Notes: generated from the letters alone by a model not told the origin. A stretch of DNA of 64,000 nucleotides from Candidatus Nomurabacteria bacterium (GCA_020632395.1 JACKFQ010000002.1:172971-236970); one strand, 5' to 3'. Counted from the stretch's first letter, positions 496-50,897 are shown. A program made the numbers and translations.

Positions 496-696
496 TTGGG
501 TGCATTATTTAAACTTGGAGATCGTACTGTCCCATTTATATCATATCAAAAGTAACCCGATGATGTGTAGAACAAAGATCCGCGGTTAATGTAAGCTATA
601 TTTATATGTCTTTCTAAATGGAGTACTTCAGATCCACATCTTTAGCTGATGAATATATGTGTTTGGGTGTTCAACTTATACCGTCCTAATAATAAA

Positions 697-723
697 CCCC
701 GGAAGCTTTGTAAACTTCCGGGG
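697..723 (-). terminator. Rho-independent terminator hairpin (CCCCGGAAG-N9-CTTCCGGGG) downstream of the 755..3352 gene
   Basis: Perfect 9-bp inverted repeat with a 9-nt loop, 30 bp past the stop at 755. It is followed on the minus strand by UUUAUUAUU. A T-rich run also flanks it on the plus strand, so it may act bidirectionally. Confidence 0.6.
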
Positions 724-754
724 TAATTGCTTTGTTGTACCTCAGACTCAAGAG

Positions 755-3352
755 CTACTTTCTTTCAGGTTCCCAATTCCCTTGACCCTGTAATACTCTT
801 ACAAAATATGCAGTCTGTTGATCAAGAGGAAAATCGAATCCAAAAGTCTCTGAGCCTGTTTTCTGGAAACCCTCATACCGACCCTTCTCGATTGGCCAAC
901 GGGTAACATTATCTGCGTTGAAGTCGATGGGTTCGTAAAGATTCACGGAGTCAATCATCGATTCCGCAGTATACGCTTTGGTGCCAGTCCCATAGAGCCC
1001 AACAAGATTCCAACCTGGTGTCAGGTATATCGGTGCTGAGTCACCCTCCGATTCATATATTACCTGTTTACCAGTTAGTTCTATGTCCAAATTGATCTTG
1101 GACTTAAGGATATATCCTTGACCTGGAACGATCTGGAAATCATTCACATTATATTGACCTCCATTCTCACCAACCACATTCCAAGTACTTCTGAACTTTG
1201 AGATCGAATAAAAGGCATTATCATACCTCTCATTTAGGCCTGCAAGTAATGTGGAGGCGGTATTCTCTCCAACCAATACCATCGGAAATGAAACGAAGTT
1301 CAACCCCGCCTTTAGCGAATATGTCACCACATCAGCAACTAGTTCGAGATTTAGCAACGAGGCATCTTCGGATAGAGTCGTCTCTCCTGGATCTAAAATG
1401 CCATTTAAATTATTATCAAGGAAGATGGAGTACGATTTCCCTTCTTCTGGTAATAATACTGTGTATGTAACCCCTTGGTACTGGAATTGATATTCACCGT
1501 TAATATATACGAAATACTGACCAGATTGTGGATCGTATAGAACGTTCTGACTACTTTCCGGGACTTGAGCTGATATCTGAAACTTTAAACTGGCAAAGAG
1601 CCTACTCAATTCGGATGCTGATGAATCAGCGGATTCAGGGGTAGCTGGAGCTGCATTAGGGTCTCTTGGGGATCCACAGTATGTATTACCATCTGTATTG
1701 TTATCACATTCAGTTCCTGTCTCACAATCCCACATCCATGGATCATCCGTGCTCATCCCATCGCAACTACTCGGTTTTGTGCATCTTTTTCCACCCCCAC
1801 ACGGCTTCACATTTGTAGAAGTCTCTTGTGGAGGTTTCCAACAGGCACCACTCGGATATCCAACAACTTCATCTCGACACCCAGTTGTACTGAGATCAAC
1901 GCACTCTCCTCCAGCCATACTTTTATAATTGACACAAGCTCCGAATGATCCCCAACAGTTTCTTCCACCACAATTCTGTGCATCATCAGGAAGTTCCTGG
2001 GGCGAGATCGAACCGTTATTGGGTGAATCAGGACATGTCGTTGAGCCTTCGCTCTTGTGAACAACGAAAGGATAATACCAAGAACCATTTGGATACTGCC
2101 CGCCAGGACAGTGACATGAATAAAAACCATCGTCTGTGCCAGCTTCACACCAAGCTCCCTTACCACAATCCACCTGAATTCCATTCTCGTAACAATCATT
2201 AGGTATCACAGGAGGAGGAGATCCACTATCATCATTTGGGAGATTTGATGTTTGGACATCAGGTTCATCGGTATTACTGGGATCAGCGGTACCGATACAA
2301 TATGAATCATCTATACGGAATCCCCCTTGTGCAATTGTGACACCATCTATACATAATAATCTTCTGTCGTCACTAAGATTATCACCATCTCCATCAAAAC
2401 ACTCTCCAAATAATGCGGGGCAACAAGGGTCACATGAGTCCTCAGCATATACCTGATCAGTCAACAGACTGGACATCCCATCGGTCGAGAGTGCTTCATA
2501 GTCAAACAATTCTGTAACATCATATAGCTGCATAAGATTCATAGGTGCATCTTGACCAGTTAGAACTGTCATTGGCATTAGTCTGCCATTCGGACCTGCC
2601 TCCACCCATACCTCCTCAGTCAGTGCTTCTGTTACCTCCCCTAAATACTCTCCATCAGATGAGAGTGCATTAGAGAGATCAAAATAGAATGTGCCATTGT
2701 TTGGATTTACCGCAGAAGAAAGTATCTGAGCATCTGTACCATCAGCATGCCTCAATATCAAATACACCACGCCTTCATCGGATAATTGACCATCTATCGC
2801 TACTACCTGACCGTATGCAGGATAAGGGGTAGCTAACGTCTCTCTTTGTGTAAATGTTGTCACAGCCGTCTTTCTGGTTATGGCATCCCTCACCCCCCTG
2901 AAGAACCATCCATTACCTACCATGATCGAATAACTTGTACTGGGGTCGAGATCTGTGACTGTAACATGATGAACATAATATCTACCTTTCTTCGTAACCT
3001 TGACCTCTGTTTCTATACTATCCACAGACAGTCCAGATCCATTATCAGTGTTAGTAGCTTTTTTACGATTCTTATTGGCCAAAGCAATTTCAGCAGCTGA
3101 GTGATCGCGATCATCATACCCTGGCACACCTCCCGTCTGTAGGAGTTTGATAGATGGTGCACTCTCAGATAGCAACAGTGCCACACCAGGGGTTTTAGCC
3201 TTGGTGACCCATGATATAGTGACAGATCTATCGGTCACATTGGATACTAAAACATTCTTCGGAGCACTTCCCCAAATGCAGTATGTTAGGATGCCAATGA
3301 TCAGAACAGATACAACGAAAGCTATAAAAGCGTATCTTTTTTGTTTGAACAT
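755..3352 (-). CDS. Giant TM-anchored surface protein (865 aa): FN3-like N-domain, Cys/Asp-rich core, conserved C-terminal module
   Basis: N-terminal hydrophobic anchor AFIAFVVSVLIIGILTYCIW. FN3-like VSNVTDRSVTISWVTK...YYVHHVTVTDLDPSTSYSIMVGNG. Cys- and Asp-rich centre (CDPCCPALFGECFDGDGD..., about 40 Cys). C-terminal about 250 aa are homologous to the C-termini of the 4246..7932, 19360..23331 and 23339..27649 proteins (PGWNLVG...W..P end). Confidence 0.8.
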   Translation of the reverse strand: MFKQKRYAFIAFVVSVLIIGILTYCIWGSAPKNVLVSNVTDRSVTISWVTKAKTPGVALLLSESAPSIKLLQTGGVPGYDDRDHSAAEIALANKNRKKATNTDNGSGLSVDSIETEVKVTKKGRYYVHHVTVTDLDPSTSYSIMVGNGWFFRGVRDAITRKTAVTTFTQRETLATPYPAYGQVVAIDGQLSDEGVVYLILRHADGTDAQILSSAVNPNNGTFYFDLSNALSSDGEYLGEVTEALTEEVWVEAGPNGRLMPMTVLTGQDAPMNLMQLYDVTELFDYEALSTDGMSSLLTDQVYAEDSCDPCCPALFGECFDGDGDNLSDDRRLLCIDGVTIAQGGFRIDDSYCIGTADPSNTDEPDVQTSNLPNDDSGSPPPVIPNDCYENGIQVDCGKGAWCEAGTDDGFYSCHCPGGQYPNGSWYYPFVVHKSEGSTTCPDSPNNGSISPQELPDDAQNCGGRNCWGSFGACVNYKSMAGGECVDLSTTGCRDEVVGYPSGACWKPPQETSTNVKPCGGGKRCTKPSSCDGMSTDDPWMWDCETGTECDNNTDGNTYCGSPRDPNAAPATPESADSSASELSRLFASLKFQISAQVPESSQNVLYDPQSGQYFVYINGEYQFQYQGVTYTVLLPEEGKSYSIFLDNNLNGILDPGETTLSEDASLLNLELVADVVTYSLKAGLNFVSFPMVLVGENTASTLLAGLNERYDNAFYSISKFRSTWNVVGENGGQYNVNDFQIVPGQGYILKSKINLDIELTGKQVIYESEGDSAPIYLTPGWNLVGLYGTGTKAYTAESMIDSVNLYEPIDFNADNVTRWPIEKGRYEGFQKTGSETFGFDFPLDQQTAYFVRVLQGQGNWEPERK

Positions 3353-3616: not shown

Positions 3617-4131
3617 CATGAGTAAAAATTTTTGTGTCCATGTTGATTGGATCACTAATAATTTTACCAGTCACATATTGGGGCTACTGTTTATGGGCAT
3701 AGATACCTAAGAACGTTCTTGTAACAAACATTACGGATAAATCAGTTACACTATCTTGGGTGACTAAGGTCAAAACCCCTGGGATAGGATACATTTTGAA
3801 ATCTAACACAAATGTTAAGATCTAAGGAACAAGCAAGGCTGTAAGATACGAGAGCGATTCTGATGATAAACAATCTATTTTAGAACCGAGTTGGAACTTG
3901 ATCAGTCTTTATGGAACTGGTACTGTCGACTATACAGCGGAGTCTATGATAAATTTTATCAATATATGTGACCCAATCGACTTCACCGCAGATAATGTAA
4001 CACGTTGGCCTACCGAAAAAGGTCGGTATGAAGGTTTTCAAAAAACTGGTTCTGAAACTTACGGATCCGACTTTCCTCTTGATCAACAAACTGAATATTC
4101 TGTAAAAGTATTGCAGGGTCAAAGAACTTAG
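3617..4131 (+). pseudogene. Collapsed, inverted remnant of a giant-surface-protein paralog (TM/FN3 start joined directly to the C-terminal module; in-frame stops)
   Basis: Plus-strand translation gives ..YCLWA*IPKNVLVTNITDKSVTLSWVTKVKTPGIGYILKSNTNVKI*GTSKAVRYESDSDDKQSILEPSWNLISLYGTGTVDYTAESMINF...VKVLQGQRT. This aligns residue for residue with the N-terminus (YCIWGSAPKNVLVSNVTDRSVTISWVTKAKTPG) and the C-terminal module (GYILKSKINLDIELTGKQVIYESEGDSAPIYLTPGWNLVGLYGTGTKAYTAESMIDS...) of the 755..3352 protein. About 700 codons are missing in between. There are TAG and TAA stops in frame and a frameshift near the TM region. Confidence 0.65.
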
Positions 4132-4179
4132 GAAACTGACAGAGAGTAGCCCTTGAGTCTGAGGTGCAAAAAGACAAGA

Positions 4180-4245: not shown

Positions 4246-7200
4246 TTATGGATCAGGAGTCCATGTACCTTGCCCTTGCAATACACGTACGAAGTATCCA
4301 CTACTCGCAATTATCGGAAAGTCAAATCCATATACTTGATATAGACCATTTTCATCCTGCTCTTTCTGTAATCCGTCATACCGACCTTTGTCAGAGGACC
4401 ACCGTGAGACATTATCTACCACGAAAGTATTTGAATTGAGTGAATCGATCCAGGATTCAGCGGTATACAATGTTTCAGAACCAGCGATACCGACAAGATT
4501 CCAGCCTGGAGAGAGGGAGATAGGAACAGAGTCGACAACCTGTAGACCTCGTAGACCAATTAGATAATCATGATTCGATTTTAGAAGGTAACCTCTTCCT
4601 GGAATCAACTGAAAATCTTCGGATCCATAGAGAGAGCCGTCTTCACGCATTCCGACGATGCTCCATGAGCCTGAATCAAAAGCTGCAAGTGAAAAAAAAC
4701 CCTTTGAAAAATTCGTATTGAGGTAAGAAATGAACTCAAATGCAGTTGTGTAATCTTCAGATATTCGATCCAAGTGAATTAGATTCAACCCAGAGGTTAT
4801 GTTCAAATATTCAAGCGAATATTTCTCCTCTAACCTTAGACTTACTCCTTCATCCTCTAGTAGAATATCACCCTCATCCAAAATGTTGTTCTCATTATTG
4901 TCAATGTATAGATCGTATTGCCTACCATTCTCGAGCTCAAAACAATAACCTACACCTGCAACGTCAGTACAGTATCGTCCCGAAGTAGAGATTGAATAAA
5001 GACCATTTGTAGGAGACAGGATGATCTCTTCCTGTGCGTTGACTGTGGTTACTAAATCTTGGAGCTTACTGAAATAAACCGATCTAGTTGGTGGCCCAAG
5101 AGTAGAATTTTGAGCGCTAGGTGTCCTAGTTTTCTCACACGAATATATTATTGATGAATTACAATAGTTGCGGTATACATAATCGTTCAAACTCTCCTTA
5201 CAATTTTCAGAAAGGGCTTCATAACTAAAATCTCCACGAGGACAATCACAGTAATCAGAGTCCGGATCCAAACGTATGTATTCTTGGCATGTTTTTTCAC
5301 CTGAGACATCGCAAAACTCCCCGACGTTGGAAGCATAACAAGTTGCGAATGTTTGGGTAGGACAAATTTGATCTATGTGGATCTCCCAACTGTCAGTATA
5401 CGTCGAATTCCCACCCATACCATTTGATGTTCTTAAACCACCTTCACACCAACAATCATCCTCTGTACATTTATCTCCTGGGAAAATAATCGGCCTACCC
5501 TTCACAAGATGGGTACCAATAGTATCCTTACAAAATTTGCCTATAGGTACCTCGATCGGAGCCCCATTCCAAAATCCTTCCCCTACGTCCTTACATCGGC
5601 AACCAGAATCAACGAGACATCGATCATCCAAACCAATAAGTGATACCCACGTACCTCCAATACACCATAGAACTCCATCATTATTGCTAATCTGTTGACC
5701 CTCACTATATGGACAATCGTCACCAGCTACTATTGGGGTGCCGACACATTTTCCGGGAGTGGTAGAAAGATCACATATTTTAGACGAACATTCCTTATAT
5801 GAAAAGCAATCGCTGTCTAGGGTTCTCAAACAAATTCCTGGATTACTAGAACTACTTCCAACACAAGTTAGGTTATAATCACAGTCTCCAAAACATATTG
5901 CGTAAAGACCTTTTGATTGATTTGGTGATTGATTTGGTGATTGATTTGGTGATTGATTTGGTGATTGATTTGGTGATTGATTTGGTGATTGATTTGGTGA
6001 TTGATTTGGTGATTGATTTGGTGATTGATTTGGTGATTGATTTGGTGATTGATTTGGTGGAGATGTGCTGTCTAGAACTGTTGCACTGGTACATTCACAT
6101 TTTTCGTCCTTAGTACAGAATTTTATATCATCGTTATCTTCGCACAATAACTGACACCCAAGATAATAACATCTATCATCCTGATTGGTTATATCCTCAA
6201 TTGTACAAGTATTATCAGAACCAGTTGGTGAAGGATACTCATTATCTGAACATAAAGGGATGTTTACTGGCTTACAAACGGCATTTGAATTAGGATTCGC
6301 TTTATAACAATAATATCCTGATGGACAATCGTTAGTATTAATATCGCATTCTACTTGATCCGAACCTACCGGTGGAGTCTGACATACTCCAATGTCATAA
6401 CCACATTTACCAACACCAAAACAATCAATACACATTAGATCCCCATACCCGTCGCAACCACCTTCCAATGGGAACTGCTTTCCAATCACACATAGATCAC
6501 CTATGCCCTTATTCTCATTCGTACCATAGTCAGAATTTTTGCATTGATCCGGTGCATCTACCCAACCGCCTCCAATACATCTCCTCCATTCACAGCCACT
6601 GGCGTTTGGGTCATCCCAACACCTTAACTCGCTTGGTCCACACACACCATTAGCACATTGTGCTCCTGGTAGGGTACCGCCAGTATCAGGTTCTTGTGGT
6701 GTAGTTCCGCCGCCACCCCCACCACCACATGTGCTTGCAGCACCTGAAGCACAAGCCTCACTTCGCCACCTTTGTTCACCATCACATCCATTTGTTGCAC
6801 AATAACCATTAAACGAGTCCATATCCGATTGTGATGCTTCGTAACACTTTGATTCACAAGTGACAGTCCAACCAGCAAAGCTTTCAAATGAAACAAACGA
6901 CATGAATGATTGTAAGAGATTTTCTTCAATTACCCTGTACTCTTCGATCAGCACAAAATCCCTCGCTGGAGCATCTTCATATGGGGGTACCTCAGTTCTG
7001 TAGAGTTCGCCGTCTTGACTTCGTACCTCTCCAACTCTCTTGAAATCAAAGATCTCCTCTTCGGAATAGGTTTCTAAAAGGTACCCACCATCAGGTACAC
7101 GTAAAGAGGTGATGTCCAGATACCATGATCCATTTTTGGCTAAGGGAGTTGACACATAACTACTAGTTCGCTCACCTGAGCTATTTTCTAGATAGTAGTA

Positions 7201-7932
7201 GAAAATTCCATCCTCCAAGGGTACGGGTGTAGGAATATCATCAGTGCGATCAAATACTTTCCCATAGATCGGGTCAGGAGTGATTAATTCATCCAACTGG
7301 GGTAATGTTGTGAATGCTGTTTGTTCCTCATTTGATAATAATCTAAAAGTTGTTCCATCACCAATATAAATTGTGTAATTCGTCTCAGAATCCAAACCCC
7401 TAAATGTCACATGGTGAGTATAATATGCACCTAGCTCTGTAACTTCGACATCTTGTTCGATCTGCTTTCCAGAGATCTCTCCATCAGAAGCAATTTCTGC
7501 ATTTGCCTTAGCTAAGTCCAATTCAGCTTTAGTGTAATCCCTATCATCATACCCCTTTATAGAGCCATCGATATTCCCTACAATCAGTTCCTTTAAACCT
7601 TCAGCTTCTGGTACAGCTAATCCTACTGCTTTTTGTGGATTTTTTGTCACCCAAGTCACAGTTGCGGAATTCGAGGTTACATTTGTTATCCTCACCCCTA
7701 TAGGATCAGCAATAAACCTGGAGGTGAAATAGTATGCTCCTGATCCAATTAGAAGCACGATCAAGGCCACCAAAAGCATGATCAGATTGACACGTTTATC
7801 ACCGAAGACTCTTTTGAAAAGGTTCTTTGGCTTTTTTCCTTGAATTGTGGATGTGTCAGAAGTGTTCATAGCTCCCAATGTTCCAACTGCTGTATCCGTT
7901 GTAGCCTTTGTACTATGTGATTGTGACTGCAT
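4246..7932 (-). CDS. Giant TM-anchored surface protein paralog (1228 aa) with (SPNQ)12 repeat linker and conserved C-terminal module
   Basis: Cytoplasmic N-tail of about 50 aa, then TM LIMLLVALIVLLIGSGAYYF. FN3-like RITNVTSNSATVTWVTK...YYTHHVTFRGLDSETNYTIYIGDG. Gly run GGGGGGG. Cys-rich core. (SPNQ)x12. C-terminus ...FVRVLQGQGTWTPDP matches the 755..3352 C-terminus (...FVRVLQGQGNWEPERK). Confidence 0.85.
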   Translation of the reverse strand: MQSQSHSTKATTDTAVGTLGAMNTSDTSTIQGKKPKNLFKRVFGDKRVNLIMLLVALIVLLIGSGAYYFTSRFIADPIGVRITNVTSNSATVTWVTKNPQKAVGLAVPEAEGLKELIVGNIDGSIKGYDDRDYTKAELDLAKANAEIASDGEISGKQIEQDVEVTELGAYYTHHVTFRGLDSETNYTIYIGDGTTFRLLSNEEQTAFTTLPQLDELITPDPIYGKVFDRTDDIPTPVPLEDGIFYYYLENSSGERTSSYVSTPLAKNGSWYLDITSLRVPDGGYLLETYSEEEIFDFKRVGEVRSQDGELYRTEVPPYEDAPARDFVLIEEYRVIEENLLQSFMSFVSFESFAGWTVTCESKCYEASQSDMDSFNGYCATNGCDGEQRWRSEACASGAASTCGGGGGGGTTPQEPDTGGTLPGAQCANGVCGPSELRCWDDPNASGCEWRRCIGGGWVDAPDQCKNSDYGTNENKGIGDLCVIGKQFPLEGGCDGYGDLMCIDCFGVGKCGYDIGVCQTPPVGSDQVECDINTNDCPSGYYCYKANPNSNAVCKPVNIPLCSDNEYPSPTGSDNTCTIEDITNQDDRCYYLGCQLLCEDNDDIKFCTKDEKCECTSATVLDSTSPPNQSPNQSPNQSPNQSPNQSPNQSPNQSPNQSPNQSPNQSPNQSPNQSKGLYAICFGDCDYNLTCVGSSSSNPGICLRTLDSDCFSYKECSSKICDLSTTPGKCVGTPIVAGDDCPYSEGQQISNNDGVLWCIGGTWVSLIGLDDRCLVDSGCRCKDVGEGFWNGAPIEVPIGKFCKDTIGTHLVKGRPIIFPGDKCTEDDCWCEGGLRTSNGMGGNSTYTDSWEIHIDQICPTQTFATCYASNVGEFCDVSGEKTCQEYIRLDPDSDYCDCPRGDFSYEALSENCKESLNDYVYRNYCNSSIIYSCEKTRTPSAQNSTLGPPTRSVYFSKLQDLVTTVNAQEEIILSPTNGLYSISTSGRYCTDVAGVGYCFELENGRQYDLYIDNNENNILDEGDILLEDEGVSLRLEEKYSLEYLNITSGLNLIHLDRISEDYTTAFEFISYLNTNFSKGFFSLAAFDSGSWSIVGMREDGSLYGSEDFQLIPGRGYLLKSNHDYLIGLRGLQVVDSVPISLSPGWNLVGIAGSETLYTAESWIDSLNSNTFVVDNVSRWSSDKGRYDGLQKEQDENGLYQVYGFDFPIIASSGYFVRVLQGQGTWTPDP
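5915..6058. repeat. Perfect tandem repeat: 12 copies of the 12-bp unit GATTGATTTGGT inside the CDS, encoding (SPNQ)12 on the minus strand
   Basis: Direct reading of the sequence shows 144 bp with no mismatch between copies. The unit length is a multiple of 3, so copy-number change keeps the frame. The track ORFs 5879..6094 and 5898..6113 are frame artefacts of this repeat. Confidence 0.95.
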
Positions 7933-19359: not shown

Positions 19360-22300
19360 TCAGCCATCAGGAGTCCAATAGCCGACACCCTCATCTACAA
19401 ATAGAAAGATTCCTATCTTGTCACTTATCGTGTAGTCTACTCCAAACACACCATCTCCTTTAGTAACATATGTAATGAACCTCCCTCGTGCCGGATCCCA
19501 GATCGCAACTTTACTAGCTTTGACACCTGGCAGTTGATTCACCTCTGCCAAGAGCTCGCTTGCAGATATCTGGGCTGATCCACCTTTCAATGCAATCAAA
19601 TTCCAGCCCTTTACCATATATTGCTGTACAGGGGATGTATAACTTTTCCCTTTGAGTCTCAATTTTACAGCCTCCTGGACTACTAGATACATCGCATCTC
19701 CCGGTGACAAGGTAAAGTCTTCACCATAATTCTGTGTCCCACGCCTATTCGCAGAAAACCATCCATTAGTAGCATTTCCCGAGTATGTAGCAACTGCTGT
19801 TGCATAACCCCCTTGATCTATGATCTCCTGAAGTATTTCTTGGGCCTCGTCAAAATCTTCTGTATAAAAAGGGATCGAGAGTATCGAGATACCCGGTTTT
19901 AGATCGATCTCTATGACATCCCCAACTTTTGTTAATTTCAGATCCATAATAGATGGGGCAGGGTATTCATCAGTGTCAAAGATCCCATCGCCATCTCTGT
20001 CTTGGAATACCGGTACATTTATCTGATCATCTGAATAATTATAGACATACTGTTCGCTTGTATCGAAAACAGATGATTCGATCAAAAATTCCCCACGACT
20101 TGGAAGTTTCAATGATGCAGCACCAAGAACCATATTCATAGATTCACCACCAGAAAGCAATATACTCTGCACACCACCAACAGATGGATCCCAGCAAGCT
20201 TCCCCATTAGGTCCTGACACATTATCAGAAGTGCATTGCCCACCTCCTCCACCTACACCTCCTCCACCTACTGCACCCCCATCAGTCTCGGCATTCCCCA
20301 CTGAGATCGAATCATTCACAAATAGCTCTGCAGAATCCCAGTAAGCATCAGAATTTCTGTACGGATATTCATTATTAGCAGCTAAATATACCGTGATAAG
20401 AGAGGAATCTGAGCTTGCAGAGATCTCAAAGTCAGTGAACTGACTACTGTCACTAGGTTGTACATTTGGTAGATCTTTCCAATCAGACCAGATGACAGAT
20501 GTAGAGTCAGGATCAATACCGCCTGTAGGGTCGATGCCTATCCTTCCTACAAATTTGTTTACTACCTGACACACACAATCACCTGACTCATTACAGCTGG
20601 CTTCTCCAAAATTCTCACAATGCTTACCATCAGACCAGGATGAAGCTCTTGCTTTAAATATAAGATCATTTGATCCACCTTCCCCAAGATCTATCTGCTG
20701 ATATACACCTGCATGATGAGTTCCGTAAGTTGTAAACCATTGTAAGGAGGAGGCTCCACCTCCTGAGGGGATCCTATTTGCAAATCCTGTCGATTGTTTA
20801 TACTCGGGTCGTCTGCATATCGCAGGATCTGACGAACACGAATACACCCCACACATCCCTCCCTGACATCCGTTCTGATACCATGCATGCCAATATTGTG
20901 GAACTTTGAGCTCAGCAGCACCATCAGATACGAAACTTCCTTCAAAACCTCCATTTAATAATCCACCTAAAGCTGTTGCATGATCTTGATGACCTACTCC
21001 TACACAAATATTCCCTAGGCATGGGTCATTTCCATTGTATGTCCCTCCGTAGGGAGATGACGAACTACTCGTATTTCCGTTTACCCCAGTTATACCAACA
21101 CTTGATGTATTGCCTGTGCTGGTAGCACTTCCTGTATATCCCTTTTCAAAAGTTACACTCACTGAGCCTTCCTGAGGAACCTGAAAATTTCCTGCTCCAC
21201 AATTTGATAACAGTCTTGAGATCAAGCCGGAATTAGACCATAACTCTTGATGATATGAAAATGCACTGTCGGGGTTAGAGCCAAGACTATTGAAAAGCAT
21301 TATCACAAAGACATTTTCCATCGAATCGAGAGCTCCTATAGTGTTTGCGAGAACATCCCAATTCATTGAAGTATCGATCTTTCCCAGCTCTGTAACAATT
21401 ATCGTATCCCTCAGCCCTTTTGATTGTAGATATGATGTAAATGCCTGAATATCAGATACAACATTACCCTCGCCCCTTTGATATAAGTAGTCATTTACTG
21501 CCCATGCAAATATATCTCCTGATACTGCTGAGAACGAGCTGTTTTCCAACATCTTATCCACATAGGTCTGTGCAGAATAGATAGGATGAGGATTTGGATC
21601 ATCACACCCATCATTGCAACCCGGCCACTGTCCATCGCCATTACTATATAGATCAAGATTTGGAGAGATCACTTTAATTCCAATATCCTCAGGATCTGTT
21701 GATAAAACGCCAGCTCCTTTCAGAACAGAGATCAGATCAGCAACAAACTGAGCCTCATCGTTAGGATCACGGTATTCGGCAACATTTGGTTCATTATGAC
21801 CTCCATGAATAAAAAGTCCATTTTGAGGTAATTGCCCAGAGGCTTTTAGTGAATTATAGACCTCTAATACGGAGTTACCATAAGCATTCCCATTATTGAT
21901 ATTGCAATTTCCTTTGTAGCAAAGCCTTAAGAGTAGGTTCATCCCGACATTCTTCCCATTTATCACACTTTGAGCATAATCATTCATCGCACCAAGATCA
22001 GTTATCAATGCCTCTCCCCATCTCATACGAGAACCTACAGCTTGTTGCATTTTATCTACAGGGACTTGGTACTGGATGGCGAAATTCTCCCCCATCTTTG
22101 AACATAAGTTCGCTGTTTGAGTCATCGGAGGGATAGTTGTTCCTGCTGGACTTGAGTCCCCTGCCGATCCAGTTGTTCCTGTAGAACCTGTTGTACCAGT
22201 CACGACTGGGGCTGGAGGTCCTTTTGGTATGTTCACGGTCACAGATGGGTCCTTTTCTGTCGTATTTATACACTCGGTTGTACCGTCAAAAGCTTTGATC

Positions 22301-23331
22301 AAATATGTCTTCCCGATCTCCAAACCAGATGATCCAATTTCTACATACCCACCATTTCGGATCTCAAGATCTGCATTAGTTGTAGGATCTTGAACATATG
22401 AGCTTGAGGTTTCATCAAAAAGTTTGAGGGTTACAGTAGCGGGTCTATGAAATTGGGTGTAGCTAGTATGTTTGATCAGCCCTAATCTAAATCTGGATTC
22501 CCCCTCCGGACAATCTCTGGTATCCAATGAGGATGTCCAATCGATCTTATCATTACACTGCACACGTATCCCTCCTCGATCAGTGCTATTTATACAGCTA
22601 TTTGCTGCATTTACTTGATGAAGAAGGGCAATATCTGATCCATCGAGTGTAGAGGGAAAGATTATGTCTGCTACAGGTTGATTATAGAAGGATGCGGTCA
22701 TATAGGTTCGTTTTTCACCGAGAGGCGTTACAACCTCAACTTCTTGAATGAAGTTCTCATCTACTCCATTGGTATATGCGATACTATAACTACCATTATC
22801 TCCTGTAGTGGAGGCAATTATCGGAGCAACATCATCTTCAGATCGTATCAATACCAGAGAATCTTTTATACCAAGGTCGTGATCATCTACAACTCGCCCA
22901 TACACTCTAGAAGGGGTTGGGATATCTTCGCTGACTGATGGCAGAGAGAATTGTTGCGATATCTCAGGCTTATTGAATATGACACCTTTTAGTGTATCAG
23001 ACCACGATAAAGAATGCTCTTGTATCGCATGATCGAGTTTAACTTCGTAATATTCATAATAAACAGTGTCAACATGATCGATCAAGCATGGAAGATTCCC
23101 ATTGTCACAATCAGATAGATGCTCGTCGTCACTTTTGATCACAGACGATACAAAAGGCAGATGAAAAGAAGGCTCTTTAAGGATCACTATTGTTATGGCG
23201 TCATCAGAGATATTGGCTAAAACATGTTCCTTGTATGAGGATCTTTCAATGAAAATGAACAGCAATAGTAATGTCGCCGGAACAAGTACTGCTAGAAACA
23301 GCATTATTGTTATCCTTACGGTATTTTTCAT
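19360..23331 (-). CDS. Giant secreted/TM-anchored protein (1323 aa) with a transthyretin-like domain, a GH5-like (clan GH-A) glycoside-hydrolase signature, a Cys-rich region and the shared C-terminal module
   Basis: N-terminal anchor ITIMLFLAVLVPATLLLLFIFI. CarboxypepD_reg-like VYGRVVDDHDLGIKDSLVLIRSEDD..TTGDNGSYSI. Gly/Thr linker TGTTGSTGTTGSAG. GH-A hallmarks: ..LLLRLCY.. (beta2 Arg), HGGHNEPNVAEY (acid/base NEP), and about 140 aa later IIVTELGK (nucleophile TE.G). Cys-rich region CLGNICVGVG..CQGGMCGVYSCSSDPAICRRPEY. Poly-Gly run. C-terminal KGWNLIALKG...VDEGVGYWTPDG is homologous to the 755..3352 family C-termini. Confidence 0.8.
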   Translation of the reverse strand: MKNTVRITIMLFLAVLVPATLLLLFIFIERSSYKEHVLANISDDAITIVILKEPSFHLPFVSSVIKSDDEHLSDCDNGNLPCLIDHVDTVYYEYYEVKLDHAIQEHSLSWSDTLKGVIFNKPEISQQFSLPSVSEDIPTPSRVYGRVVDDHDLGIKDSLVLIRSEDDVAPIIASTTGDNGSYSIAYTNGVDENFIQEVEVVTPLGEKRTYMTASFYNQPVADIIFPSTLDGSDIALLHQVNAANSCINSTDRGGIRVQCNDKIDWTSSLDTRDCPEGESRFRLGLIKHTSYTQFHRPATVTLKLFDETSSSYVQDPTTNADLEIRNGGYVEIGSSGLEIGKTYLIKAFDGTTECINTTEKDPSVTVNIPKGPPAPVVTGTTGSTGTTGSAGDSSPAGTTIPPMTQTANLCSKMGENFAIQYQVPVDKMQQAVGSRMRWGEALITDLGAMNDYAQSVINGKNVGMNLLLRLCYKGNCNINNGNAYGNSVLEVYNSLKASGQLPQNGLFIHGGHNEPNVAEYRDPNDEAQFVADLISVLKGAGVLSTDPEDIGIKVISPNLDLYSNGDGQWPGCNDGCDDPNPHPIYSAQTYVDKMLENSSFSAVSGDIFAWAVNDYLYQRGEGNVVSDIQAFTSYLQSKGLRDTIIVTELGKIDTSMNWDVLANTIGALDSMENVFVIMLFNSLGSNPDSAFSYHQELWSNSGLISRLLSNCGAGNFQVPQEGSVSVTFEKGYTGSATSTGNTSSVGITGVNGNTSSSSSPYGGTYNGNDPCLGNICVGVGHQDHATALGGLLNGGFEGSFVSDGAAELKVPQYWHAWYQNGCQGGMCGVYSCSSDPAICRRPEYKQSTGFANRIPSGGGASSLQWFTTYGTHHAGVYQQIDLGEGGSNDLIFKARASSWSDGKHCENFGEASCNESGDCVCQVVNKFVGRIGIDPTGGIDPDSTSVIWSDWKDLPNVQPSDSSQFTDFEISASSDSSLITVYLAANNEYPYRNSDAYWDSAELFVNDSISVGNAETDGGAVGGGGVGGGGGQCTSDNVSGPNGEACWDPSVGGVQSILLSGGESMNMVLGAASLKLPSRGEFLIESSVFDTSEQYVYNYSDDQINVPVFQDRDGDGIFDTDEYPAPSIMDLKLTKVGDVIEIDLKPGISILSIPFYTEDFDEAQEILQEIIDQGGYATAVATYSGNATNGWFSANRRGTQNYGEDFTLSPGDAMYLVVQEAVKLRLKGKSYTSPVQQYMVKGWNLIALKGGSAQISASELLAEVNQLPGVKASKVAIWDPARGRFITYVTKGDGVFGVDYTISDKIGIFLFVDEGVGYWTPDG

Positions 23332-23338
23332 TTACCAG

Positions 23339-26300
23339 TTACTTCTCTGAGGGTATCCAATACCCTACACCATTATCAACAAGTAAAAATATCCCCTGTA
23401 CATCAGTTATCCCGAAATCAGAACCATACTCCTCACGACCTTCAAAGATGAACTGTCTGTAACTACCTTTGGAACTATCCCATACCGCTATAGCAGATGC
23501 CTGTACTCCTGGGAGATCGGTTACTTCCTCTAATACTCTACCAGCATCATAGCTTGCAGATGTACCCTTGATTGCTATTAGATTCCAACCCGCCTTTACA
23601 TACTGCTGAACTGGTTCTGCGTAAGATGTACCCCGTAATCTAAGGTCTACAGCTCTTTTGATCACTATGAACATAGCGTCTCCAGGTCTGAAGTCAAAAT
23701 CCTCACCATAACTCTGGTTTCCGACCATACTATACATATTCCAGCCAGATGTTTTTCCACTATTTCGATAAACAGCAATAGAAGTTGCTAAACCACCTTG
23801 ATCTTTGATGGCAGAAAAGATATCACTTACACTCGTAAGATCTTCATTGTAAAAAGGAATTGAGACGAGGTTGATCCCTTCTGACAGATCTAGTTGTATG
23901 GCATCTCCGATCTGTCGAATGCTCACCATACTAACATCAGGAGCAAACGGTTCTCCTTCATCATATTCACCATCCTGATCCAGATCCTGAAATACAGGTA
24001 GTTCTAGCGGTGTATTTGCAAAATTCGCACGATAGATCGGTTCACTCATATATCCCTCTGCATAGATCTCATACTCACCTCGAGTTGGCAAAGTGATCAT
24101 TGGAGGGGTCGTTGCTCCTAATATATTTTGAGATATTATATTTGAATTCGTAGGAAGGAGATCTTTGCTACTTTGTAATCGGGGATCTTCAAAATCACCA
24201 TTCCAATTTGGTACACATTTTGTTACACAACAGTGTGCTCCCAACTTCCCGTCACCAGGAGGAATAACCCCACAACCTGCAGGGCATTGTGCAGATGTGC
24301 GCCCCCAGGGGCATGAGTTTGCCGGAGGGAGAGGTTCATCTGTATTGAGCCATTTTTTGGTTGATTCAATATATCCATCAGGACATAAAGGTTGACAACT
24401 TTGGGATTCAACCCAACAGGCGTCTATACCTGTTATATCGGAAACGCTTTGATCACACGCTATACCAGAGGGGGTTGTACCACCCCCACCTGTTGTATCA
24501 TATTCTAATTGCTGTTCACCTGAATTCGTGGCATCACCAACAGACAAAATATCATTTACGAACATTTCTACGCCATCCCAGTATGAGTCAGAGTTTCTGT
24601 ATGGATATTCATTATTTGAGGCGAGGAAAACTGTCACCCTATCATTTGAGGAGGTGGTTTCGATCTCAAATTGTACAAAATTCGCTCCATCTTGAGGTCC
24701 AACATTGGGTAATGACTTCCACTCTGTCCACTCAACGGTCGATGCGGTAGGATCGATACCCCCAGTTGGATCGATCCCTACCCGTCCAACAAATTTATTA
24801 ATTATCTCACAGAAACAATCCCCTTCAACAACACAACTAGATTGACCATATCCCTCACATCTTTTGTCATCCGACCAGGAAGACGCACTGGCAATAACTT
24901 TAATATCATTTGTTCCTCCTAGACCAAGTTCAACTTGTTGGTAAACTCCAGCATGATGTGTCCCGTAAGTAGTAAAGTATTGTAGCGAGGCGCTTCCTGC
25001 TAATCTACGATTTACGACATCAGCACCACTAGATTGCTTATATTCAGGTCTTCGGCAGAAGGCCGGCTCATTAGAACAAGCATAGATCCCACACTGCCCC
25101 CCCTGGCAACCGTTCTGATACCACACATGCCAGTACTTAGGCACATTTAATTCAGCTGCTCCATCGCTAACGAACTCACCTTCCATGTTTCCATTCAATA
25201 ATCCCCCTACCGCTACAGCATAATTATTATAATCTTTTCCTACGCATATCCCTCCTAGACAAGGGTCAGACCCATTATATGACGACCCGTAGATGCCGGG
25301 AGATCCACTACTACTCCGTGCGGAATTATCCGGTGAGCTATTAAATGGTACCGAACTTGAGGTTGTAGGGGGTGAGGAACTACCACTTGCACTACTGCCA
25401 TTACCATTACTCGAACTCCCAGAGGTAGTAGTCACAGGTACTTCTCCTTCCTGAGGGACTTGATATGATCCGATAGTACAATTTGAGAAAAGACTCTTGA
25501 GAAGGTTACTATCATCCCATAGGGGTTTGTGGTATTCAAAAGCAGGATCTCGATTAGTTCCTAAAGCATTGAACAGCAGGAATCCTTCGACATATTCTTT
25601 TGATTCTAATGTTGCCAAGGTATTTGCTAATACAGACCAGTCATGAATAGGTTGTTGTCCAGGAGGTGCGTAGTTACCAGTTTCTGTAATGAATACACGA
25701 CCCGGTAGATCTCGCGGTTGTAAGTATGCCGAGTAAAAGCCATCCACATCAGCATTAACAGCATCAGGACCCTTTTGATAAATATAATCATTTACTGCCC
25801 ATGCATACAACTTGTTCGCAGCTTCGTAGAAACCTTCAACCTTCAGCATCTCATCGATATATGACTGTGCGGTGTATATAGGATGTGGATTTGGGTCATC
25901 ACACCCGTCAGAACAACCTTGCCACTGTCCATTCTGATAAATGTACAGGTCAAGATTAGGACTCAAGAGCTTGATTGTAGTCTCACCGAGATCTTGTCCG
26001 AGCAATCCGGCAGAATCTACAGCATTCACAACACCTATCAGGAAGTTTGCCTCAGAGGTTGGATCTCGATATTCTGCATTGTTCGGCTCATTGTGCCCGG
26101 CATGGGCAAACAACCCATCCTGAGGAAGAGTACCGCTTTGCATCAACTCATTGAATACACCTACTAAGGCTTGACCATATGCAACCCCATCATTCACATT
26201 ACAATTATTTTTATAACATAAGCGAAGTATCACATTCATACCTAAATTATTTGCATCTGACACAGAAGCCTTATAATCATTGATCCCACCAAGATCCGTG

Positions 26301-27649
26301 ATCAATGCCTCTCCCCACCTCATTCCCAGTGAAACACCTTTCTGTATATCCTCTGCCGGGATCCTGTACTGTACTGCAAAATTATTTCCTACTTTCTTAC
26401 AAAGATTCATCTCGTCTGTGACAGGTGGTATCGTACCCGCACCACTTGTTCCATTACCTGTATTACCCGTACTGCCTGTATTGCCTGTATTACCCGTACT
26501 GCCTGTATTGGAACCAGAAGGAGGACCTTGGCGATTTTCTGGGGACCTATACAAAACAGTTGGGTCACCATCATCTGTATTTTTACACTCAGTCGTACCT
26601 TCGTACGCTTTGATAATATAAGTTGCACCATCCTTCAGATCGACCTCAACACCATCTACATAACCACCGTTTGAAACGGTCAAAACATTTCCATCAGAAT
26701 CTTTCACTAATTCACCTGTAGACTTCTCTACAAGTTGTAATTTCACATCCTCAGGCTTGTGGAACTGAGTAACTGATGTTGACTTGATCATTCCAAGTCG
26801 AAACCTACCATCTCCTTTGGGACAAGTTGTAGTGTCTAATTGAGATAACCAATCCACTTTCTCATTACACTGTGCACGAATACCTCCCATTGTGGTAGAT
26901 TTTATACAAGAATTTGCAGCATATGATTGGAAAGAAAGTTCAGACAATATGTTCTCCTCTGAAGGCTCTTTCACTTGGACTATAAGATCTGCCACGGGTT
27001 TGTTAAAATCACTACTCGTCCGTAGAGTTACCTCTTCTCCTCCCATTGTCACAACAGAAACCTCTTGGAGATAGTACTGTTCCGAATGGGGAAGGATAAA
27101 ACTGTATGTTCCATCCTCAGCTGTTTTGGTCACATATATGGTATCTAATTCGGGAGCATCGATAAACACTAAAGCGTCCCCGATCAGATTATCATACTGA
27201 TCTAGAACCCTTCCGTAAGCTCTTTCAAATGTCGGAACTACATTTTCGACATTTGATATAAGACCGATCGAGGTAGTTTCTGCACCAAATGATTGTTTCA
27301 AAGTGTCTACCCATTCAAGAGTATTTGTTTGAAGGTCAATCATATTTGCCACCTTGAAATACCAATACTTATCATTTTTCAGTACAGTCGAATAACATGG
27401 ATCAACAGTATCTTTACCGCACTCATTGATCTGCACATCATTTAGCAACAACTTAGGTTCTAAAGGATATGCACCTCTTGAAGGATCTAACTCTGCAATT
27501 ACTGAAATGGTCGAACCCTCCTGTTGATATGATCTTAGAGCCACCAGAGTGCTTTTCTGACCGTTAAAGAGAATTACAAGAAATATCAGAAATGAGAACA
27601 GAATTGTTACTGCTGAAATGAGCAGTATCTTTTTACGATTTTTATCCAT
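23339..27649 (-). CDS. Giant secreted/TM-anchored protein paralog (1436 aa) with GH5-like signature and shared C-terminal module
   Basis: Colinear with the 19360..23331 protein. Anchor ILLISAVTILFSFLIFLVILF. AYGRVLDQYDNLIGDALVFIDAPE. Linker GSNTGSTGNTGNTGSTGNTGNG. HAGHNEPNNAEY and VFITETGN. Cys-rich CLGGICVGKD..CQGGQCGIYACSNEPAFCRRPEY. C-terminal AGWNLIAIKG...VDNGVGYWIPSEK. Separated from its upstream paralog by 7 bp. Confidence 0.8.
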   Translation of the reverse strand: MDKNRKKILLISAVTILFSFLIFLVILFNGQKSTLVALRSYQQEGSTISVIAELDPSRGAYPLEPKLLLNDVQINECGKDTVDPCYSTVLKNDKYWYFKVANMIDLQTNTLEWVDTLKQSFGAETTSIGLISNVENVVPTFERAYGRVLDQYDNLIGDALVFIDAPELDTIYVTKTAEDGTYSFILPHSEQYYLQEVSVVTMGGEEVTLRTSSDFNKPVADLIVQVKEPSEENILSELSFQSYAANSCIKSTTMGGIRAQCNEKVDWLSQLDTTTCPKGDGRFRLGMIKSTSVTQFHKPEDVKLQLVEKSTGELVKDSDGNVLTVSNGGYVDGVEVDLKDGATYIIKAYEGTTECKNTDDGDPTVLYRSPENRQGPPSGSNTGSTGNTGNTGSTGNTGNGTSGAGTIPPVTDEMNLCKKVGNNFAVQYRIPAEDIQKGVSLGMRWGEALITDLGGINDYKASVSDANNLGMNVILRLCYKNNCNVNDGVAYGQALVGVFNELMQSGTLPQDGLFAHAGHNEPNNAEYRDPTSEANFLIGVVNAVDSAGLLGQDLGETTIKLLSPNLDLYIYQNGQWQGCSDGCDDPNPHPIYTAQSYIDEMLKVEGFYEAANKLYAWAVNDYIYQKGPDAVNADVDGFYSAYLQPRDLPGRVFITETGNYAPPGQQPIHDWSVLANTLATLESKEYVEGFLLFNALGTNRDPAFEYHKPLWDDSNLLKSLFSNCTIGSYQVPQEGEVPVTTTSGSSSNGNGSSASGSSSPPTTSSSVPFNSSPDNSARSSSGSPGIYGSSYNGSDPCLGGICVGKDYNNYAVAVGGLLNGNMEGEFVSDGAAELNVPKYWHVWYQNGCQGGQCGIYACSNEPAFCRRPEYKQSSGADVVNRRLAGSASLQYFTTYGTHHAGVYQQVELGLGGTNDIKVIASASSWSDDKRCEGYGQSSCVVEGDCFCEIINKFVGRVGIDPTGGIDPTASTVEWTEWKSLPNVGPQDGANFVQFEIETTSSNDRVTVFLASNNEYPYRNSDSYWDGVEMFVNDILSVGDATNSGEQQLEYDTTGGGGTTPSGIACDQSVSDITGIDACWVESQSCQPLCPDGYIESTKKWLNTDEPLPPANSCPWGRTSAQCPAGCGVIPPGDGKLGAHCCVTKCVPNWNGDFEDPRLQSSKDLLPTNSNIISQNILGATTPPMITLPTRGEYEIYAEGYMSEPIYRANFANTPLELPVFQDLDQDGEYDEGEPFAPDVSMVSIRQIGDAIQLDLSEGINLVSIPFYNEDLTSVSDIFSAIKDQGGLATSIAVYRNSGKTSGWNMYSMVGNQSYGEDFDFRPGDAMFIVIKRAVDLRLRGTSYAEPVQQYVKAGWNLIAIKGTSASYDAGRVLEEVTDLPGVQASAIAVWDSSKGSYRQFIFEGREEYGSDFGITDVQGIFLLVDNGVGYWIPSEK

Positions 27650-28947: not shown

Positions 28948-29757
28948 ATGGCAATGTGGAATGTCAGTTCATCAGAGGCAAAGCATGAACGTACAGTTAA
29001 ATACATTAGAATAACAATATCCTTACTGCTCTCTGGAGTTGGTTTGTATATTCTCGCTTCACAAGCGGTACCCATCGGCCAATCATATATTAAGGGTGCT
29101 ATCATTGAGAAAAGGGAGGAATTGAAAGTAAGTCCTGTCCCTGGTTCGTACAAGAGAGAGATCGGGGGAGAATTTGCCTATTGGGATCCGGGAAGAAGCT
29201 ACTTTGAGAACCTGATCGCTCAAGCTGTCTTGACCCCTGAGAATGGCCAAAGGGTCTACAACCCAGAAACCCAGCAATATCTAGATGTAGAAATAGATCA
29301 GAACTATTCAACTCCGATGTCACTTACTATCAGTTCGCTAGACATCGTCGACCTCAACATCACCCCTAACGTAGATAGCTATGATGAGAATGCTTATAAT
29401 CGGGTATTGAAATATGGGTTGGCTCATTTTAAGAGTACACCTCTACCAGGGGCAGGTGGAAATTCTTTTATATATGGGCACTCCGCTGTAGATTCGTATT
29501 TCAACAATCATAAGAATAATCCCGAGGTTGCATTCTCGATATTAGAGGATATCAAAATAGGCGATGAGGTAGAACTGACCAAAGATGGTAGAATATACAG
29601 GTATGTAGTGAGAAAGAAGAAGATAGTAGAACCGACCGATTTCTCTATCCTTTCCAGACAAACATGGAAGGAAACTCTCACATTGATGACCTGTTCGCCG
29701 GTCGGTATCGGTACAAATAGATTAGTTGTAACAGCAGAATTAATAAATGGACAGTAA
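28948..29757 (+). CDS. Sortase (membrane-anchored transpeptidase)
   Basis: N-terminal anchor ITISLLLSGVGLYILA. Catalytic His in FIYGHSAVD. Signature TLTLMTCSPVGIGTNRLVV, i.e. the TLxTC active-site Cys with the conserved Arg 9 residues later. Confidence 0.8.
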   Translation: MAMWNVSSSEAKHERTVKYIRITISLLLSGVGLYILASQAVPIGQSYIKGAIIEKREELKVSPVPGSYKREIGGEFAYWDPGRSYFENLIAQAVLTPENGQRVYNPETQQYLDVEIDQNYSTPMSLTISSLDIVDLNITPNVDSYDENAYNRVLKYGLAHFKSTPLPGAGGNSFIYGHSAVDSYFNNHKNNPEVAFSILEDIKIGDEVELTKDGRIYRYVVRKKKIVEPTDFSILSRQTWKETLTLMTCSPVGIGTNRLVVTAELINGQ

Positions 29758-43495: not shown

Positions 43496-43551
43496 ATTTC
43501 AAAAGAGTTCTTGCTTAAGAATATCACAGCGTGGCTATTGATGCACCAGTT

Positions 43552-44244
43552 CTATGATTGGTTGAATGCAGCCCAGATCTTCAATATGATATTTGCAGCC
43601 CATGTTTTCGAACTGTCTGGATCTCCTTGACTACTTACTTGTACAGTACGAAGGAATTGTTGACTAGGTTGATAACCGGCCAGCCTTGGAACATTCATAT
43701 TATTTGTAAATGTTGCACCTGACTCATCTTGTATCCTTTTCACATCTTCCGGACTCTGGACACTCGTTTCATCCTCCGCAAGCTCAACCTGTTGAACTCT
43801 CTCTTTCAGTGCATCAAACCTCTTTTCTACTTCAGACCTCTGATTGATCAAAACCTCACCACCAGGGACTTGAGCTTTTTCATGCTGTTTATCTGGAGAA
43901 GTAGAACCTATATTTCCTTCGACCTGATCTACAAACTGTTCAAATTCGGGTCGTCCTGCAACTGTTAGAGTAGATCCTTCACCTTTTGGTAAGATCTCGT
44001 GAGAGAACAAGAATTCCAGTTTCTGCTGAACGTTCAATGTCGACCATACACTTTCAGGAACGACACCGTACAATCGCTTGGGAAGTGTATCGATATCTAA
44101 AAGGATACCTCTCTGTTCGTAGGTCAATTTTCCCCACATCTCTATACTAACAAGGGTAGAGAGCCTTTCTGGTGGGACATCCAACCTTTTTCGAGCATCC
44201 TGCTCTAATATCTGCTCTTTTGTTACTAATTTTTGATCTGCCAT
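43552..44244 (-). CDS. Hypothetical protein (230 aa), acidic and helical; adjacent to the coupling ATPase
   Basis: Complete ORF with no motif I recognise. Its position suggests a possible T4SS accessory role; this is inference only. Confidence 0.4.
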   Translation of the reverse strand: MADQKLVTKEQILEQDARKRLDVPPERLSTLVSIEMWGKLTYEQRGILLDIDTLPKRLYGVVPESVWSTLNVQQKLEFLFSHEILPKGEGSTLTVAGRPEFEQFVDQVEGNIGSTSPDKQHEKAQVPGGEVLINQRSEVEKRFDALKERVQQVELAEDETSVQSPEDVKRIQDESGATFTNNMNVPRLAGYQPSQQFLRTVQVSSQGDPDSSKTWAANIILKIWAAFNQS

Positions 44245-44300
44245 TTTTTATAATTGCCTGATCTCAATGGTCGAACTCGACCACACGCATAAGCTAGGCG

Positions 44301-44759
44301 TTATTTTACCATAAATGAGCGTCTCTCTCTATGCAACTCTCTTTCCAGATCCCTTTCTTTGATCCTCTTTTTCTTCTCATACGATCTTTTACCTTTTCCT
44401 AAACCTATCTCTAGCTTTACCATACCTCTTGCTAAAAATACGGATAAAGGAACGATCGTCATTCTATCACTTTCAGCTTTACGTTGTAATTCCCTCAATT
44501 CAGCCCTTTTTAATAGTAGTTTTCTACTTCTAAACGGGTCGTATCCCTCAACAGTTGCATATTTATATTTTGGGATGTCGGCATTCCACAAAAATGCTTC
44601 TCCACCAATTATCTTAACAAATGAATCAGAAATGTTCACTTGACCACTCTTGATCGCTTTGACCTCTGATCCGAGTAGTTGAATACCAGCTTCGTACTTT
44701 TCCTTGATCTCATAATTGAAATAGGCTTTCTTATTTTTGGTTATCAATTTGATTCCCAT
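44301..44759 (-). CDS. smpB: SsrA-binding protein SmpB
   Basis: KKAYFNYEIKEKYEAGIQLLGSEVKAIKSGQVNISDSFV...GYDPFRSRKLLL...EIGLGKGKRSYEKK is a canonical SmpB. Length 152 aa. Confidence 0.9.
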   Translation of the reverse strand: MGIKLITKNKKAYFNYEIKEKYEAGIQLLGSEVKAIKSGQVNISDSFVKIIGGEAFLWNADIPKYKYATVEGYDPFRSRKLLLKRAELRELQRKAESDRMTIVPLSVFLARGMVKLEIGLGKGKRSYEKKKRIKERDLERELHRERRSFMVK

Positions 44760-48349: not shown

Positions 48350-48403
48350 ACACCAGTATATAATATCTTATATAGGATTATAACACATTTAGTATCGTAT
48401 TTC

Positions 48404-50206: not shown

Positions 50207-50214
50207 AATGTCGA

Positions 50215-50880: not shown

Positions 50881-50897
50881 GGGCAGAAACTAATTAG

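Follow-up and report, generated by a model that had tools for sequence, protein, structure and literature searches.

We found that four proteins encoded in a 64-kb stretch of DNA from a Candidatus Nomurabacteria assembly (hereafter the window, which denotes the whole stretch) end in copies of one homologous module of about 250 amino acids. The family to which this module belongs is real, large and previously unannotated, and it defines a class of surface proteins of CPR bacteria. The module comprises an N-terminal beta subdomain followed by two tandem, homologous alpha/beta units of about 90 aa with a GWNL signature. We infer from its anatomy, position and distribution that it is an extracellular binding module, a functional reading which is more tentative than the existence of the family.

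The genes for all four proteins lie on the minus strand. Protein A (755-3352, 865 aa) consists of an N-terminal anchor, an FN3-like domain, a transthyretin-like domain, a unique Cys-rich core and the module; protein B (4246-7932, 1,228 aa) has the same frame with another Cys-rich core and a (PNQS)12 linker. Protein C (19360-23331, 1,323 aa) carries an N-terminal anchor, a transthyretin-like domain, a region with motifs like those of glycoside hydrolase clan A (GH-A), a Cys-rich region and the module, and protein D (23339-27649, 1,436 aa) is a paralogue of C which is listed at NCBI as a hypothetical protein. At 865-1,436 aa these proteins are large, not 'giant' as a sequence-only reading of the window had described them. 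The same reading had placed modules at 755-1504 (A), 4246-4995 (B), 19360-20109 (C; 249 aa and the stop codon) and 23339-24088 (D), all on the minus strand, and examination of the ORFs showed each of these positions to be correct. The A, B and D modules were recovered by BLASTP, tblastn, alignment, hmmsearch and an HMM of the repeat unit (see below), and the C module by cross-family BLASTP, alignments and an AF2 model.

A fifth, decayed copy belongs to an inverted paralogue. It had been placed at 3880-4131, which is too small an extent: the copy exists, but runs from approximately 3706 to 4146 on the plus strand (tblastn, blastn and translation). Its translation contains three in-frame stops and shares 65% identity with the final 124 aa of A (tblastn), and its DNA matches both the 3' end of the A gene (window 694-1014, 76.8% identity) and the 5' region of that gene (window 3186-3262, 74% identity, both by blastn). 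The pattern of these matches points to an internal-deletion derivative of an A-like paralogue, in which the TM segment and the start of the FN3 domain are joined to the end of repeat 1 and repeat 2. Besides the four complete copies and the decayed one, no module was found in the window by tblastn or hmmsearch.

Between A/B and C/D, similarity in BLASTP comparisons is confined to the last 200-273 aa, at 23-26% identity (E = 4e-19 for A-D, 4e-16 for A-C, 6e-14 for B-D and 4e-11 for B-C). Within each family the modules are 38-45% identical; A and B also align at their N-termini (33% identity) and over their last ~300 aa (38.5%), and C and D are related along their whole length (47%). An HMM built from C/D-type modules alone scores the A module at 138 bits and the B module at 128 bits, against a best score of 8.0 bits for composition-matched shuffles (1,528 of 2,000 shuffles gave any score). 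Together with the recovery of 335 sequence clusters at E <= 1e-30 (see below), these results rule out that the similarity is an artefact of composition, low complexity or repeats, an explanation to which we give practically no credence; moreover, the alignment is colinear and contains invariant columns of W, G, P and F, and the structure predictions are confident. The proposal that a colinear C-terminal module is shared by two protein families is thus confirmed, and sequence comparison supports a single homologous module on differently built ectodomains.

The two families had been regarded as unrelated upstream of the module. This holds for the FN3 region of A/B, for which no homology with the N-terminus of C/D was detected, and for the cores, among which no homology was detected; the cores of A and B match neither each other nor any other representative. 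It does not hold for the N-terminal hydrophobic anchor, which is common to both families, or for a transthyretin/CarboxypepD_reg-like domain, which is homologous between A (residues 163-230) and C (residues 127-190; hhalign Prob 98.2%, E = 5.5e-14). Among 120 full-length representatives, 99% of pairs are alignable in the module and 77% in the N-terminal 230 aa, against 7% in the central core. The FN3 N-terminus of A/B type is present in 109 of the top 150 proteins and the C/D architecture in about 13, and hybrids occur: one protein (P0130) combines the A/B N-terminus with the GH-like and Cys regions of C/D, and another (P0151) combines it with the transthyretin-like region of C/D. Because of the shared transthyretin-like domain, the hybrids and the contrast between core and module, the proteins are better described as a single superfamily frame (TM anchor, N-terminal domain, transthyretin-like domain, core and C-terminal module, in that order) with an exchangeable, hypervariable Cys-rich core than as unrelated ectodomains onto which a common domain was grafted.

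The domain of C/D that had been called GH5-like is best treated as a lead. Assignment to clan GH-A calls for a family profile match and for a TIM barrel that bears both a NEP acid/base and a nucleophile Glu. In the C/D core the motif GHNEPN (H117, N118, E119) is invariant and VTExG nearly so, but the best Pfam matches are to Glyco_hydro_cc (E = 0.0063, in two of 11 members) and GH10 (E = 0.13), and no match was found among PDB sequences.

The extent of the family was assessed by an exhaustive search, with a profile of the four window copies, of 1.84 billion representatives of clusters at 50% identity. At E <= 1e-3 this yielded 1,987 clusters, of which 824 remain at E <= 1e-10 and 335 at E <= 1e-30; word-indexed searches with profiles of 4 and of 33 sequences recovered nothing beyond a fragment of B and one remote protein. 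Full-text literature searches on the motif strings, Dojkabacteria and CPR surface proteins yielded nothing on this module. Carriers are mostly 850-1,470 aa long, and of 155 proteins, 152 have 0-5 residues between the end of the module and the C-terminus. A single hydrophobic segment, located at the N-terminus, is present in 114 of 122 full-length members; these segments are 20-22 residues long and have no canonical signal-peptidase site. C-terminal hydrophobic tails are absent from all 122 members, as are LPXTG-like motifs from their last 120 residues. The proteins are thus not LPXTG substrates of sortase. Judging from their sequence, the N-terminal segments would be signal anchors in an N-in/C-out orientation, which would make the module extracellular; start codons are uncertain, however, and in some members the segment could be a cleaved signal peptide, which would alter the argument on topology. 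With a membrane anchor at the N-terminus, a second retention device is not strictly needed, an observation that speaks against an anchoring role for the module.

We then resolved the module into its parts, which in protein C are all encoded on the minus strand. The beta subdomain (residues 1-62; 19924-20109) was delimited by alignment and predicted strands, which in the AF2 model lie at residues 6-12, 21-24 and 57-70. Repeat unit 1 (residues 63-157; 19639-19923) and repeat unit 2 (residues 158-249; 19363-19638) are recognised by the unit HMM at E = 8e-21 and E = 2e-22, respectively. By alignment, the beta subdomain contains an acidic loop of DxDxDG type, D37-R-D-G-D-G-I-F-D-T-D-E (19966-20001). 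Its first residue, D37, is invariant in 33 of 33 diverse modules, in which the loop consensus is YxDxNxNGxxDEG. Following the motif of Rigden and Galperin, calcium-binding loops of this type have D or N at positions 1, 3 and 5, G at position 6 and an acidic residue at positions 9-12, and the C loop has this pattern in its sequence. It is a probable Ca2+ loop.

The two units are homologous to each other (hhalign Prob 91.7%, E = 1e-7), and a 94-position unit HMM matches both repeats in every family member (E = 1e-19 to 1e-30). Their signature is L-x-x-G-[WFLI]-N-[LF]-[IV], a helix, W, and then [DN]-F-x-[IL]-x-P-G-x-G-Y. Repeat 2 carries the GWNL motif and closes with G-x-G-x-W-x-P one to four residues ahead of the stop; W169, G223, F235 and P247 in this repeat are invariant among the 33 diverse modules. 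The AF2 model of the whole C module, built on the 33-sequence alignment, has a pLDDT of 93 and a pTM of 0.85, and repeat 2 modelled alone as a 93-aa unit (pLDDT 92.6) has the same secondary structure as in the full-module model, with one helix packed on about seven strands. Because the models are confident and mutually consistent, the module is predicted to be an assembly of folded domains and not a linker. It is also nearly free of Cys (0-2 residues) inside proteins that are otherwise rich in it.

The view that the module belongs to no known domain family was upheld by profile searches. No Pfam-A family matched the module above the gathering score in the four proteins or in the 33 diverse modules, and NCBIfam, PHROGs and PDB sequences gave no match either. 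The best Pfam-A score was to SdrD_B (E = 0.011), which lies below the gathering score and was obtained for only two of 33 modules, in the Ca-loop subdomain alone. The first subdomain resembles the Ca2+-binding stalk domains SdrD B and CNA-B in that both are beta-rich parts of surface proteins and contain an acidic loop similar to DxDxDG; the subdomain is, however, shorter than a full SdrD_B domain. The structural check that had been proposed gave a confident model with no neighbour in the PDB at E <= 1e-3 by Foldseek, where a similarity to CBM16 (E = 0.67) is at noise level. The absence of any similarity to known wall- or carbohydrate-binding families in Pfam, NCBIfam and Foldseek searches is a further observation against anchoring.

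Several known systems nonetheless resemble the module in their layout. An analogy with GW and SLH modules had been drawn, and it stands as a likeness of function but not of fold, as the predicted unit is alpha/beta and neither SH3-like nor SLH-like. The GW modules of Listeria InlB and Ami are likewise C-terminal tandem repeats of ~80-90 aa with a conserved Gly-Trp, found on different surface proteins and mediating association without LPXTG; the module does not qualify as a GW domain, which is defined by the Pfam GW profile and by an all-beta, SH3-like barrel of ~80 aa. SLH, CWB2 and LysM repeats of monoderms are small terminal repeats that tether diverse ectodomains to wall polymers, but they share no sequence or fold similarity with the module, in which the copy number is fixed at two and a Ca-loop beta subdomain comes first. 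SLH domains in particular are mainly helical, ~55 aa long and usually present in three repeats, whereas the two units here measure ~90 aa and are beta-rich, and they have no SLH match in Pfam or NCBIfam. The carbohydrate-binding modules (CBMs) of glycoside hydrolases are promiscuous, non-catalytic and C-terminal, and sometimes stand behind Thr-rich linkers as do two sets of relatives described below (L013, L016); C/D carry the GH-A-like motifs and the units have conserved aromatic residues. However, no CBM family matches at E <= 1, the GH assignment is unproven, and most carriers (A/B type) have no enzyme domain. Nor is the module an RCK_C or TrkA_C ligand-binding domain as recognised by profile, fold and RCK_N or transporter context.

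The C-terminal sorting domains of the T9SS (Por_Secre_tail) are also strictly C-terminal folded domains on unrelated secreted proteins. By analogy, the module might be a sorting or processing domain that serves as a recognition site for export or attachment machinery and may be cut off, and its strict position, its conserved last motif (G-x-G-x-W-x-P and one to four further residues) and its unrelated cargo would fit such a role. We nevertheless consider this very unlikely. T9SS domains are beta sandwiches of ~80 aa that serve a machinery of diderm Bacteroidota, while CPR bacteria are regarded as monoderm; the module, with 250 aa in three folded subdomains, is far larger than known sorting domains and has no match to Por_Secre_tail, TIGR04183 or any other NCBIfam sorting signal. 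The proteins already possess an N-terminal export or anchor segment, and genes for a dedicated machinery are not linked to theirs.

To place the module genes in their genomic context, we looked at related assemblies. Exact copies of C occur on GCA_020632435.1 (a 1.09-Mb contig) and GCA_020429305.1, and the 1,436-aa members of the cluster of D are labelled Candidatus Nomurabacteria or Candidatus Dojkabacteria, all as 'hypothetical protein'. A scan of GTDB species found 17 loci, all but three of them in MAGs labelled Dojkabacteria (WS6) or 'uncultured Saccharibacteria'. The source organism is an uncultured Dojkabacteria-type (CPR) bacterium. The window is chromosomal, with carrier genes interleaved with nusA, infB, pnp, dnaJ, rsmB/E and alaS, and module proteins are present several times per genome. 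A C/D-type gene lies directly upstream of nusA in locus L001, and an A/B-type gene adjoins rsmE in loci L002 and L011; the PNPases of these three MAGs are 56-72% identical to that of the window. That the positions beside nusA and rsmE are kept despite this divergence indicates that module genes encode a core component of the envelope and are not mobile cargo.

A link of the module with sortase or T4SS genes had been suggested. The window contains a sortase gene at 28948-29757 and T4SS-like genes from 40928 onward. We found no homologue of sortase, T4SS coupling protein or LCP within 10 kb of any of the 17 loci, even at E = 1e-3, so that such a link was not borne out and the proximity in the window is, as far as can be told, due to chance. 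This also bears on the possibility that the module serves protein docking or oligomerisation, through homo-oligomers, a lattice or attachment to a common S-layer, pilus or secretion protein. No conserved neighbouring gene that might encode such a partner was seen, sortase, T4SS and LCP genes are unlinked in the 17 loci, and the occurrence of the unit in phyla with quite different envelopes (see below) argues against one specific partner; we therefore regard docking as unlikely.

The tandem pair alone also ends secreted proteins of other bacteria, which carry a signal peptide. A 414-aa protein of Desulfobulbia (L016) consists of a signal peptide, a PpiA-like cyclophilin PPIase, a Thr-rich linker and the pair. 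In L013, a PKD protein has a Thr-rich linker before the pair, and a 2,215-aa LVIVD/beta-propeller/BNR protein ends in it, as does a Big_3_5 protein (P0152; E = 3.6e-13 against 5.8 billion sequences). The units of these bacteria are homologous to the Dojkabacteria unit (hhalign Prob 96.9%, E = 2e-10, and 97.7%, E = 2e-12). Over the unit, no Pfam or NCBIfam model matches the remote members, and a search with a remote unit returned only short unannotated fragments. A Thr-rich linker before a C-terminal appendage is the classic layout of a tethering module. A minimal version is provided by a 214-aa protein (L014:228-872) made up of a TM anchor, a linker of about 22 aa and the tandem pair only, which places the module beside the membrane, in the zone of the wall.

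Phage lysins often borrow wall-binding domains. No phage or virus protein with the module was detected in two IMG/VR pattern scans, a tblastn search of INPHARED and a PHROGs search, all of low sensitivity, and lysins or receptor-binding proteins of phages are thus unsupported as carriers. This result, obtained with insensitive searches, counts against anchoring as well; CPR phages are poorly sampled.

The main rival to wall binding is a role as a distal adhesin or CBM-like tip, in which the module would bind a ligand on host or partner cells or a common environmental polysaccharide, and the core would be a stalk or decoy. With the N-in/C-out topology proposed above, the free end of a long ectodomain would be formed by the module, which could equally be such a tip; this is itself a point against anchoring. 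CPR bacteria are generally episymbionts, the GH-A-like motifs of C/D would allow the module to be a substrate-targeting CBM, and the subdomain with the Ca2+ loop resembles adhesin stalk domains, if marginally (SdrD_B). Yet across paralogues and divergent genomes no part of the proteins is as conserved as the module, and the cores are hypervariable, whereas host-recognition tips usually show the reverse pattern; the 214-aa minimal protein keeps the module ~22 residues from the membrane, and remote homologues tether enzymes such as the PpiA-like PPIase. A tip thus seems to us possible but rather doubtful.

Binding or tethering is the most reasonable reading of the shared function that had been proposed for the module. 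It is favoured because a small domain is duplicated in tandem at a strictly C-terminal position and nearly lacks Cys, an anatomy typical of modules for binding or retention; because signals for covalent anchoring are lacking (0 of 122 proteins with LPXTG or a C-terminal hydrophobic tail) and the confident models predict a folded assembly; because the module is invariant beside hypervariable cores and its genes keep core-genome synteny; and because relatives with Thr-rich linkers occur on unrelated domains and the minimal version is membrane-proximal. A conserved partner fits better than a variable target, since the module is alignable in 99% of pairs and the cores in 7%, across two architectures and their hybrids. 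We propose that the module would be a non-catalytic extracellular binding module, composed of a beta subdomain with a probable Ca2+ loop and the GWNL unit pair. The pair would bind an invariant envelope ligand non-covalently, most plausibly peptidoglycan or a wall glycopolymer, and this binding would hold the C-terminal end of the protein in place or set its orientation, leaving the variable Cys-rich core on display. That the module binds or anchors to such a ligand, with the cell's own wall as the most economical candidate, is the reading that we prefer, and we hold it tentatively.

CPR bacteria (Patescibacteria), which live attached to other cells, account for a large part of bacterial diversity, and to our knowledge almost nothing is known of their surface proteins. 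The module marks a family of about 2,000 clusters at 50% identity, whose members are anchored in the membrane, conserved at both ends and hypervariable in their Cys-rich cores. With a profile of it, hundreds of 'hypothetical proteins' would become recognisable as a class, and there would be a handle for cataloguing the surface repertoires of Dojkabacteria. Being compact and confidently modelled, the domain also lends itself to structural and binding studies; it has no solved structural neighbour in the PDB. In a bolder version of the proposal, which we think improbable, the GWNL pair would be a new fold and a new class of envelope-binding domain, and would act as the C-terminal clamp of a Dojkabacteria display system: a conserved base (TM, FN3 and transthyretin-like domains) and the clamp would hold interchangeable, disulfide-rich hypervariable cassettes that form a repertoire for host or substrate recognition in episymbiosis. 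If binding to a wall polymer is true, the module would be a new type among the few known non-covalent surface-anchoring modules.

Among the four large minus-strand surface-protein genes of the window, those of the A/B-type (genes A and B, with an FN3-like domain near the N-terminus) and those of the C/D-type (genes C and D) both encode a transthyretin/CarboxypepD_reg-like beta sandwich after the N-terminal domain, at 2663-2866 in A and 22762-22953 in C. These two domains are homologous (hhalign Prob 98.2%, E 5.5e-14); therefore, the parts common to the two families exceed the C-terminal module.

The tandem GWNL unit of that module is also found in proteins outside the window. At one locus, a 214-aa protein (L014:228-872) consists solely of a TM anchor, a linker of ~22 aa and the tandem GWNL pair, and its gene sits about 3 kb upstream of one encoding a family member of 1,128 aa. 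In non-CPR bacteria, the tandem unit also ends secreted proteins, namely those at loci L013 (L013:1610-8254 and L013:1-1317) and L016 (L016:1957-3198) and the profile-search representative P0152; their partner domains are LVIVD/beta-propeller/BNR, PKD, cyclophilin PPIase and Big_3_5. In two of the four a Thr-rich linker precedes the pair, and in all four the tandem unit is without annotation in Pfam and NCBIfam.

The core of the C/D-type proteins (21157-22146 in C, and the matching region of D) contains an invariant GHNEPN and a nearly invariant VTExG motif, separated by about 135 residues like those of clan GH-A glycosidases. Matches to Pfam were marginal (Glyco_hydro_cc, E 0.0063; GH10, 0.13), and none was found among PDB sequences. 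The core may be a divergent glycoside hydrolase. At 5914-6059, within gene B, a 12-nt unit repeated perfectly in tandem (12.2 copies, 100% matches) codes for (PNQS)12 in the core of the protein, an in-frame linker that is probably of variable length. Short imperfect in-frame repeats in gene D (26453-26510) and gene C (20241-20271), with periods of 9/18/27 and 15, code for Gly/Ser/Thr/Asn-rich and Gly-rich linkers.

Elsewhere in the window, a minus-strand cluster (40928-57038) begins with a T4SS coupling-protein-like ATPase (40928-43495; T4SS-DNA_transf, TrwB_AAD_bind), after which come numerous hypothetical proteins, 104-1,039 aa in length. One of these, the product of 50215-50880, has an N-terminal signal-like segment and, near its C-terminus, 'LPQAS' with a hydrophobic stretch and RRY after it; it is a possible atypical sortase substrate.

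Public taxonomic labels for this lineage disagree with one another: for the window and the loci L018 and L019, identical proteins appear both under Candidatus Nomurabacteria (GCA_020632435.1) and under Candidatus Dojkabacteria (GCA_020429305.1), while a number of related MAGs carry the label 'uncultured Saccharibacteria'.

Between A and B lies an inverted pseudogene (3706-4146, plus strand), an A-like paralogue shortened by an internal deletion which joins the TM segment and first ~30 FN3 residues to the end of repeat 1, followed by repeat 2, of the module, the junction falling around a common 'PG'. It carries three in-frame stops, and its 76.8% DNA identity to the 3' end of A reaches ~60 nt past the A stop codon. 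This pseudogene is evidence for gene birth and death within the family. Two further profile-search representatives, P0130 and P0151, join an A/B-type N-terminus to C/D-type central domains, and these hybrids indicate cassette exchange between the two families.
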